DNA of 64,000 nt, taken from Pseudonocardia sp. (GTDB lineage: Bacteria > Actinomycetota > Actinomycetes > Mycobacteriales > Pseudonocardiaceae). The notes under the pieces were generated by a model. The model did no database searches. It was given only the letters and a program-made list of their open reading frames with translations, and was not told where the DNA came from. Position numbers and translations under genes: made by a program. Numbering within the stretch: the first letter of the stretch is position 1; the number at the start of each line of letters is the position of its first letter. The stretch lies in the NCBI RefSeq assembly GCF_036500625.1, contig NZ_DASYBQ010000012.1; one strand, 5' to 3'. This document shows positions 28,401 to 30,761 of the stretch, one piece after another.

Positions 28401-30761
28401 TCAGCGTCCGAGTCGGACGGTGTCGCGGACACCGGGCCCATCGGCCATCATCAGCGCGCTCGGGCGGACCCGCTCCGGTTCGGGGCGCCGGCCCAGGGTT
28501 TGCCGGACGCGGTCACCCGCCGGGCGAAGAGGCTCGAGACGGGCGGCCGACGTGCCCAATCCGGTGGGCCGCACCGGCCATGCCGGCGGCTGGGGCCGGG
28601 GGTGGGCGTGCTGGGTGTTGGCGAGCAAGTCGGCCTCGGCGTAACGGTGACAGCCCTGGTGCCAGTGCAGAATCCCGGACAGCCAGTTCTCGAGTTGGGC
28701 GGCGTAGCCGCGCAGCGTGACCCGAGCGGGCTCGTCGAGGTGCAGAGTGTCGAACATGGCGGGCAGGTCGACGGCGATCACGTGTTCGAACTGGTGCATC
28801 CGGGCGTTCATCAGTTCGCCCACCACCTGCATACCCTCCTCTGGGCCGCAGTCCAGGAAGTTCTGCACGACCAGCACGCAGTTGTGGATCCCACCTTCGA
28901 ACTGGATCTCCTTCTGGTAGGAGAACACATCGTTGATCATGCATGCGTAGTCCTGGGCGGCGTTCTGCATCGCGGCCACCGCGCGGGACCTGTACGCCGT
29001 CTCCGGCACTGTCGCGGGGTGCGAGAGCCGCGAGAGCGTCATCGTCAGGTCCGAGCCGAACGTCGCTCGACGCATTTCGATGTAGTCGATCGGGTCAGGG
29101 ATCCGGTGGTGTGTCTGGTTGGTCAGCTCCCAGATCCAGCTCTCGATCATGTCGGCGATTGCCTGACGGAACTGCTCGCGGGCTGGCACGCTCATCGGCG
29201 CCGCGGTGCGTGCCCACAGATCGGCCAGGGATCTCTCCAGCCCGTTGAGCGGGACCGCCGTCGTGGCGGCGGTCCAGCCAGGATCGTCGGCCTCGACGGG
29301 CATGAAGGTAGCCAGTCGGGTGTTCTGGGCTTTCGCGGCGGCGATGTTCCTGGTGGTGCCGAACACCATGGGGTAGTAGTCGTCGCCGTAGGTGCCCCAG
29401 CTCAGCCACCCGGAGGTGATGTCGAGCTGGTCGGGAGTGGCCTCGGGGTGGATCCCCGCGGCGCACAGCGGTAGGTCGATCGCGCGCAGCCGCCGCTCGT
29501 CCCACACCCCTTCGGCGAGGATGCCCATCCGGTGCGACCAGTCGATGTTGCGGGCGCGGGCGCCGGATAGGTGCGGGCTCAGCCGCACCCCGAAGGGCAT
29601 GTACATCTCAGGGTGCGCGACGGCACCGACGGGCTGGAAGGGCACGTGGGTGAACCGGCGCACCCGCTGAGGCATGGTCGCGGCGATGCTGGCCGCGATC
29701 CGGGCGCCGGCGGTGCCCACACCGGTCGGCCCGGACAGCGCGGGTCCCGGGGTGGTGTGGGTGTTCATGTACCGGGAGGAGGCCATGTGCCATTCGTGCC
29801 CGCCGGCCTGCCAGTCCTGCAGCCCTTTGACATACCGACCGACCCCGGTCGCGGCGGCCGGGTCGATGCCGTGCTCGACCAGCAGCGGGGCAATCTCGGT
29901 CAGCGCGGTGTGTTCGAACTGGTGCAGTCGGGAGGTGAGCAGATCATTGACCAGTTCGGCCGCGGTCTGGGTCGAACAACCTAGGAAACGCTCGATGACC
30001 AGCACCGAGTTGGCCAGCTCACCCTCCTCGGCCACCTCGCGCTGGTAGGAGAACAGATCGTTGCGCAGGTGCACACTGTCGGCGAAGCAGTCGCGCAACA
30101 CGCGCATCGGGCGCAACGCGGCGATCGGGGCGGGGACCTCGGCGGAGGCGGCGTGTTCGACGAGGTTCGCCGACCACGGTGCGCCGCCTACCTTGCGGCG
30201 CATCTCCACGTACTCGATCGGGTTGGCCACCCGAGCTTCGTTGATGTTGGCCAACTCCCACAACGACTCGTTGAGCAGATTCCGGGTGCTCTCGGCGAAG
30301 CGTGCCCGCCAGTCCGGCGAATGTGCCGGGACGGTGCGCGACCACAACTGGGCCAGCCCGGCTTCGACCGGATTGGTCGGTTCCGGGGCATCACCGGCTC
30401 GATCGGCGAGGGGCATGAACTCGGCGAGACGATCGAGGTAGGCCCGCGCCCCGTCGAGGTCACCGCCGCGCTTGTAGCACTGCAGGAAGTGGTCATCGAA
30501 GTAGAAAACCCACACGTACCAGTCGGTGACCAGATCAAGATCGTCGGCGGTCGCATCGGGGTGGGTGTAGGCGCACAACAGCGCGTAGTCGTGCGCGTCG
30601 AAGTCATCCTCGGTCCAGATCGCTGTGCCGTCCACGGGCACGTCGATCATGTCCATGTCGTACGCCCAGGACTTGCTGTGCGCTCGGGCCCTTTCCAGGT
30701 ATGGATTACACCGCGCCGGATACGGCGTGTAGAACTCGGGCAGCTCGAACGGTTGCGACAT
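28401..30761 (-). CDS. geoA: Two-domain germacradienol/geosmin synthase
   Basis: Domain 1: [26 protein letters not shown]. Domain 2: [15 protein letters not shown]. About 790 aa. RBS GAAAGGA. Confidence 0.9.

Follow-up and report, generated by a model that had tools for sequence, protein, structure and literature searches.

The DNA analysed here, which we call the window, is a 64-kb stretch from Pseudonocardia sp. (contig NZ_DASYBQ010000012.1) with a G+C content of 69.6%. Between 26.6 and 32.4 kb, its minus strand carries a compact operon of co-directional genes separated by small gaps, which encode the shell protein of a Family 2B encapsulin, the germacradienol/geosmin synthase GeoA, a polyprenyl diphosphate synthase and an isopentenyl-diphosphate (IPP) isomerase (Table 1). 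A gap of 36 nt separates the end of the shell gene from geoA, which lies downstream of it on the same strand. GeoA contains two short peptides that resemble known encapsulin cargo-loading peptides, one in the linker between its cyclase domains (CLP1) and one in its C-terminal tail (CLP2). By analogy with characterised systems, we consider it very probable that GeoA is the cargo of the adjacent shell, tethered through both CLP1 and CLP2, in a geosmin operon with a single shell gene.

Table 1 Features of the geosmin operon, with coordinates in the window
Feature	Coordinates	Strand	Basis
Family 2B encapsulin shell, HK97-like SrpI-type fold with inserted cNMP-binding-fold domain	30801..32375	-	Pfam, NCBIfam, PDB
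geoA, germacradienol/geosmin synthase, two class I terpene cyclase domains	28401..30764	-	Pfam, NCBIfam, PDB matches
CLP1 (core GPTGVGT), inter-domain linker, GeoA residues 344-355	29697..29732	-	Translation, motif scan
CLP2, C-terminal tail (predicted disordered), GeoA residues 731-742	28536..28571	-	Translation, motif scan
Arg/Pro-rich 44-aa extension past CLP2, ends RDTVRLGR	28404..28535	-	Translation, homologue comparison
Polyprenyl diphosphate synthase, 374 aa from ATG 28393	27269..28393	-	Pfam, NCBIfam, JGI gene call (374 aa)
Type 1 isopentenyl-diphosphate delta-isomerase of the Nudix fold; final operon gene	26642..27220	-	NUDIX 9.2e-21; NF002995 251 bits, cut-off 127

The geoA open reading frame (ORF) comprises 787 codons and closes with a stop codon at 28403-28401. 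The most likely start is the ATG at 30761, which gives a protein of 786 aa, because an identical GeoA is found on a 6.3-kb contig of the Joint Genome Institute (JGI) metagenome 3300036782 and the JGI gene call on that copy begins there. Pfam Terpene_syn_C_2 (PF19086) matches two stretches of the protein (6.1e-101), and the N-domain of Streptomyces coelicolor GeoA (PDB 5dw7) matches with E=1.6e-157. The translation contains one pair of metal-binding motifs per domain (DDHFLQ with NDLFSYQRE, and DDYYP with NDVFSYQKE). An AlphaFold2 model, computed from an alignment of 70 homologues, shows two confident helical domains (mean predicted local distance difference test score (pLDDT) 85.1, predicted template modelling score (pTM) 0.84). 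NCBIfam NF041168 (f2_encap_cargo3, 'family 2 encapsulin cargo protein terpene cyclase') aligns over positions 1-735 of its 735 with GeoA residues 4-742, scoring 1163.4 bits. The nearest homologue, P0002, is 73% identical, and the best identity in the GTDB species set is at most 67%.

For the shell gene, the longest ORF encodes 524 aa. The probable start is M29 at nt 32291, which would give 496 aa, since the homologue at locus L062 begins with MSVD. SrpI-like PF19307 covers residues 255-503 (4.7e-128) and cNMP_binding PF00027 covers residues 151-238 (1.7e-14), the latter corresponding to the inserted cyclic nucleotide monophosphate (cNMP)-binding fold. For NCBIfam NF041163 (encap_f2b), the score of 712.9 bits exceeds the cut-off of 400. 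The solved 2B shell of S. griseus (PDB 9bhu) aligns without gaps at an offset of 36 residues (E=4e-184), and on the basis of this 616-bit match the protein is predicted to assemble as a T=1 icosahedral particle. In the S. griseus shell, four hydrophobic residues lie beneath the three-fold cargo density (L264, L285, F430 and Y441; PMC11550324). All four are identical in the Pseudonocardia protein (L300, L321, F466 and Y477). The best match in the GTDB species set, 86% over the shell domain, comes from an uncultured Actinomycetes metagenome-assembled genome. No second shell gene is found in the window, where tblastn with the shell protein returns only the gene itself.

The first-pass annotation of this DNA had placed two GPTGLGT-like motifs in GeoA, and both are there: 29712-29732 is the core of CLP1, and the C-terminal motif coincides exactly with CLP2. 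Compared with the published 11-residue consensus, CLP1 agrees at 8/11 positions (residues 344-354) and CLP2 at 10/11 (residues 731-741), with Arg at position 1. The Val at position 5 of CLP1 is also present in homologues P0010, P0073 and P0102. The GeoA model contains two extended segments with pLDDT<50, at residues 335-346 and 719-786. CLP2 lies wholly within the second segment. CLP1 straddles the border of the first, with its GP inside the segment and its C-terminal half opening a helix at residues 348-368 (pLDDT about 72-79). The low-confidence segments that hold or adjoin the two peptides are probably disordered. The tail had been described as about 70 aa rich in Pro and Arg, which is fair: it runs for 79 aa past the last cyclase helix, 68 of them with pLDDT<50, and consists of 15% Pro and 16% Arg.

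Because the window is rich in G+C and the GeoA product rich in Gly, Pro and Ala, we considered whether the two motifs could be there by chance. A loose form of the motif (PxGxGT) indeed occurs 8 times in the six frames of the window compared to 8.6 expected. The strict form ([GR]P[TNSA]G[LVIM]GT), in contrast, has 2 matches in the six frames, both inside GeoA, while second-order Markov simulations of the window give an expectation of 0.105. Furthermore, two or more PxGxGT appear at a frequency of only 1e-4 in 20,000 residue shuffles of GeoA, and in 120 homologues and 80 genomes the motifs keep their positions. Chance is refuted by this conservation, and we reject it as having practically no probability.

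The conservation is positional as well as sequence-based. Most of the 120 closest GeoA homologues (85) have two PxGxGT, one in the linker and one in the tail; 33 have one, while a single homologue has three and another has none. In the 70-sequence alignment, G347 and G349 of CLP1 are invariant, and conservation reaches 90% or more at G344, P345, T350, A353, R354 and I355 as well as in the G-x-G core of CLP2. Across the GTDB loci described below, the motif lies about 15-17 residues past the RY that closes each cyclase domain, in the linker and the tail alike. Therefore, each cyclase domain bears a tag at an equivalent place. The number of tags can also vary: a duplicated C-terminal peptide brings it to three in L007 and P0118.

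Previous publications have covered the motif, both of its positions and its function. Andreas & Giessen (2021; PMC8346489) described the motif between the cyclase domains and its repetition at the C-terminus, and proposed it as a putative targeting sequence. The same authors found in 2024 that the N-terminal loading domain of the S. griseus 2-methylisoborneol (2-MIB) synthase is required for loading (PMC11550324). Fazal, Dutcher, Andreas & Giessen (bioRxiv 10.64898/2026.07.21.739788, July 2026) then reported the loading of Myxococcus xanthus GeoA (MxGeoA) into a two-component 2B shell (MxEnc1-MxEnc2). Deletions and mutations in that study showed that CLP1 in the linker and CLP2 at the C-terminus load cooperatively, the deletion of either one reducing loading by about 30%. 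With a minimal peptide, GPTGLGTS, density was seen at the three-fold pocket, and benefits of encapsulation for stability and titre were shown. Of the 299 GeoA-containing 2B systems counted in the same work, 35% have one shell gene.

The locus in the window has the features of a GeoA-type 2B cargo: two cyclase domains, peptides both within the linker and C-terminally, predicted disorder and a co-localised shell gene. As in M. xanthus, the peptides follow the same consensus, and the shell gene in the cluster is of type 2B with a cNMP-fold insertion. The two loci differ in that the shell gene is upstream of geoA here and downstream in M. xanthus, and in that the operon here includes a polyprenyl synthase and an IPP isomerase. 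CLP1 has Val and Ala-Gly, CLP2 starts with Arg and is followed by 44 residues, and the host is of actinobacterial type with high G+C. By analogy, we infer that the loading, the binding site and the effects on stability and titre described for M. xanthus would also apply to this locus. The suggestion that this enzyme uses the same loading code in internal and C-terminal positions is supported by the adjacent 2B shell, the preserved pocket, the exposed regions of low confidence around the peptides and the MxGeoA literature.

The first-pass annotation went further and took the motifs to predict encapsulation directly, which our comparison of genomes does not bear out. We scanned GTDB species genomes and collected 80 GeoA loci, each with flanks of up to 10 kb per side. 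A shell gene is present in the flanks of 19 loci and absent from those of 61; these loci are not phylogenetically independent. The strict linker motif is present in 13/19 loci with a shell and 29/61 without (Fisher p=0.125), and the strict tail motif in 14/19 and 43/61, respectively (Fisher p=1.0). Motif counts thus show no significant difference, and we rejected the idea that the motif predicts an adjacent shell. The Mann-Whitney p=0.044 for a weak trend of CLP1 with shell adjacency should carry no weight, given this lack of independence among the loci. Each of the 19 loci that have a shell gene in their flanks retains at least one strict motif, so that loci with neither motif number 0/19 in this group, compared to 10/61 in the other. 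The motif is a trait of the GeoA family and is not restricted to GeoAs with a neighbouring shell.

As a refutation test, this comparison is confounded, because orphan GeoAs keep the peptides and 88.3% of their genomes encode a 2B shell elsewhere (10.64898/2026.07.21.739788). The comparative result is the sole increment of our analysis: all shell-adjacent GeoAs keep at least one tag, orphans are widely tagged, and a few lineages have lost both, in agreement with statements of the 2026 preprint. It is the combination of tags, adjacent shell and intact pocket that predicts encapsulation at this locus, and not the tags alone.

The linker motif is degenerate in several Streptomyces-type GeoAs, some of which are also without the tail motif. 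In the Streptomyces loci L045, L048 and L050, the linker motif is degenerate, a tail motif cannot be recognised and no shell gene is adjacent, and their linker sequences suggest grouping them as S. coelicolor-like GeoAs. In Nonomuraea, GeoAs beside two shell genes (L031, L051, L058 and L067) have a degenerate linker peptide (RPLGMSS) and a strong C-terminal one.

Since the motifs persist in most GeoAs that have no shell gene within 10 kb, they could instead serve GeoA itself, by capping the linker helix, setting the inter-domain geometry or maintaining solubility, with the shell packaging other cargo or none. The second half of CLP1 does open a conserved helix, in which the residues that follow (ARIxxSLxxTAPQRLRSF) are nearly invariant in the family, and MxGeoA is insoluble after deletion of both CLPs (10.64898/2026.07.21.739788). 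Nevertheless, we find this explanation very improbable. The same motif is present in the N-terminal disordered domain of the differently built 2-MIB synthase, as well as in a 2-MIB synthase (2-MIBS)-like cyclase encoded near the closest GeoA homologue, and CLP2 sits in a tail without predicted structure. The M. xanthus mutational data oppose it, as does the high proportion of orphan-GeoA genomes with a 2B shell elsewhere. Moreover, our scan of the 64-kb window with the strict motif found no other motif-bearing candidate cargo.

A number of points weigh against the loading of GeoA through CLP1 and CLP2. GeoA falls below the curated cut-off of NF041168 (1163.4 compared to 1200 bits), and the polyprenyl synthase is just under that of NF041169 ('family 2 encapsulin cargo protein polyprenyl transferase'; 444.7 compared to 450 bits). 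For GeoA, this is a narrow miss of a deliberately strict 'exception' model and does not contradict its other features. CLP1 departs from the consensus, with Val for Leu and Ala-Gly for Ser-Ala, and part of its conservation may be structural because its C-terminal half begins a conserved helix. CLP2 is not at the very C-terminus of GeoA, 44 residues following it. The motif alone is no specific evidence for encapsulation, being nearly equally frequent in GeoAs without a neighbouring shell. This locus has one shell gene compared to two in M. xanthus, so that closed-pore states, which were seen only in mixed M. xanthus shells, may not apply.

Published loading experiments add to these points. The GPxGxGTxxL segment (CLD_D) of the S. 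griseus 2-MIB synthase improves loading yet is dispensable (PMC11550324). The first-pass annotation had relied on the 2-MIB synthase work for the statement that such motifs mediate loading; the improvement stands, and 'mediate' is an overstatement for a segment that is not required. For MxGeoA, about 20% of loading is left after mutation of CLP1 and deletion of CLP2 (10.64898/2026.07.21.739788). Both results imply that other disordered stretches rich in Pro, Gly and Ala contribute.

These results lead to an alternative in which GeoA is encapsulated and the motifs are only auxiliary. Binding would then be diffuse and driven by the composition of the Pro/Gly/Ala-rich linker and tail, including the 44-aa extension, rather than by a sequence-specific code. 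The heterogeneous CLP densities in the M. xanthus shell (10.64898/2026.07.21.739788) and the long, disordered tail of the Pseudonocardia GeoA, rich in Pro and Arg, are consistent with such binding. It is difficult to reconcile with the motif being the only conserved element of otherwise variable linkers and tails, with a G-x-G that never varies in CLP1 and is conserved to 90% or more in CLP2. In addition, the minimal GPTGLGTS is sufficient for density at the three-fold pocket, and each single CLP deletion measurably cuts loading (10.64898/2026.07.21.739788). We therefore regard the auxiliary role as unlikely, if the most plausible of the alternatives.

Under specific loading through CLP1 and CLP2, the reading that we prefer, the shell protein would self-assemble, like its solved homologues from S. 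griseus and M. xanthus, into a T=1 icosahedral compartment of 60 subunits. The cNMP-fold domains would be on the outside, above large two-fold pores. Inside, CLP1 and CLP2 would each bind the hydrophobic lumenal pocket around the three-fold axes (L300, L321, F466 and Y477). Two tags per GeoA would provide avidity and redundancy, and GeoA would be tethered inside during shell assembly. The polyprenyl synthase and the isomerase encoded in the same operon would help to make farnesyl diphosphate (FPP), which would enter by the pores, and geosmin would exit likewise. The main effect of encapsulation would be to stabilise the protease-sensitive two-domain GeoA and to raise geosmin yield.

If this is true, geosmin is made inside a protein shell in Pseudonocardia sp., as in M. 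xanthus. The locus would represent a simpler, one-shell actinobacterial example which also encodes the enzymes of precursor supply. It would be useful as a comparison case, for example to ask if closed pore states require a second shell protein, and it opens no new question. The locus is an uncharacterised example of a known system, with minor peculiarities: the single shell gene, the polyprenyl transferase (PPT) and IPP isomerase genes in the operon, the substitutions in the two peptides and the 44-aa extension.

Other characterised systems share only part of this organisation. The S. griseus shell (EshA, or Sg Enc; 9bhu) is a close homologue with a conserved three-fold pocket, and its cargo is likewise a class I terpene cyclase with a GPxGxGTxxL-type motif in a disordered region. 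That cargo differs in having one cyclase domain and an N-terminal loading domain of about 120 aa, compared to the two tags, internal and C-terminal, found here. Family 2A encapsulins (SrpI, 6x8m; Acinetobacter baumannii, 8t6r), which have a cysteine desulfurase as cargo, possess a homologous HK97-like shell domain (E about 1e-80) and a conserved N-terminal arm (N-arm; LGxxAARxLAxxTKTxPQ), and their cargo loads via a disordered domain at the three-fold axis. They lack the cNMP-fold insertion, have closed two-fold pores and use other cargo with other motifs (LARLANEFFS, AASPYYFLDG). S. coelicolor GeoA (SCO6073; 5dw7/5dz2), the reference free geosmin synthase, has two domains, the same catalytic motifs and a degenerate form of the linker motif, ALTGPGTSAADV, at the place of CLP1.

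The C-terminal extension of GeoA sets it apart from most of its relatives. The 44 residues past CLP2 compare with a median of 11-12 in homologues and are the longest of the 93 protein homologues scored, while one GTDB locus (L032) has 55 residues past its tail motif. The pLDDT of the extension is 31-40. Its RDTVRLGR ending is common only to P0002, the closest homologue. We also observed that the last codons of geoA run up to or into the region in which the polyprenyl synthase gene starts. This could place a nucleotide-level constraint on the extension. An alternative ORF for the polyprenyl synthase, 390 aa from 28441, would overlap the geoA stop. The extension, which is lineage-specific, might, though with very low probability, constitute a third module, for example one that recruits the motif-less polyprenyl synthase for piggy-back co-encapsulation.

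The polyprenyl synthase itself matches Pfam polyprenyl_synt (2.4e-61) and probably supplies the prenyl diphosphate substrate. We looked for a loading motif in the protein and found none, either in the window copy or in 10 related neighbouring PPTs, in agreement with the previous report that no conserved motif was found in polyprenyl transferases (PMC8346489). A scan of the operon for promoters and terminators gave nothing over shuffled expectation.

We noticed that a segment in the N-arm of the shell protein (residues 55-61; 32193-32213, minus strand) resembles the LGTSAAR of the cargo peptides. The pattern [LIVM]GT[AS][AG]AR, chosen post hoc, has 3 six-frame matches in the window against an expectation of 0.115: one in the N-arm of the shell and one in each GeoA peptide. 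With a position-specific scoring matrix (PSSM) of the cargo peptides, columns 5-12 put shells in the top ~1% of background. The full 12 columns do not single out the shells, about 10% of background segments scoring equally high, and columns 1-7, which represent the minimal binding peptide, reveal no resemblance to the N-arm. The segment is also equally conserved in 2A shells with unrelated cargo. Given the PSSM limits and this conservation, we judged the resemblance to be probably a shared helix-start motif, and functional mimicry of the cargo peptide by the N-arm is unlikely. The two-fold pores are opened or closed by the N-arm. Competition between N-arms and cargo peptides for a common site could therefore, in principle, couple cargo load to pore state, a scheme to which we give very little credence.

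Two further observations relate to the shell gene. By eye, its cNMP-fold domain (residues ~205-220) appears to read H-T-T (WHTTVTAAT) where cyclic AMP (cAMP) binders have a phosphate-binding Arg (R-T/S-A). Consistently, 2B shell domains have been reported to be without this Arg and not to bind cAMP (PMC11550324). On the opposite strand, Rfam RF02735 ('Sernc350', a Saccharopolyspora antisense small RNA of 513 nt) matches 31726-32232 (+) above its gathering score, with 66 bits. Every Family 2B shell gene checked shows such a match, antisense to its first ~500 nt: besides the one in the window, those in L001, L006, L011, L019, L052, L062, L071 and L082 give scores of 59-272 bits, one of them being cyanobacterial. 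RF02735 probably reflects the conserved encapsulin coding sequence of the opposite strand and not a structured RNA.

Upstream of the shell gene and separated from it by a non-coding gap of ~395 nt is another minus-strand gene (32770-34809), whose third-position G+C of ~0.95 indicates that it is real. Its product has no Pfam or NCBIfam match; by eye it shows metallophosphoesterase-like motifs (GGDEAYP, GNHDWYDG and GDLHHY) followed by several hydrophobic, probably membrane-spanning stretches.

Finally, the closest GeoA homologue, P0002, is encoded in one operon of a contig (L081; ENA ERZ27313809 k141_2107897, 1-7035) that is cut at the shell gene. The operon consists, in order, of the 3' end of a 2B shell gene, a 2-MIBS-like cyclase, a methyltransferase, an IPP isomerase, GeoA and a polyprenyl synthase. 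The 2-MIBS-like cyclase has 432 aa, with ASGLGTSAIQF in its N-terminal disordered region. From this gene order, one shell gene adjoins both earthy-odour cyclases.

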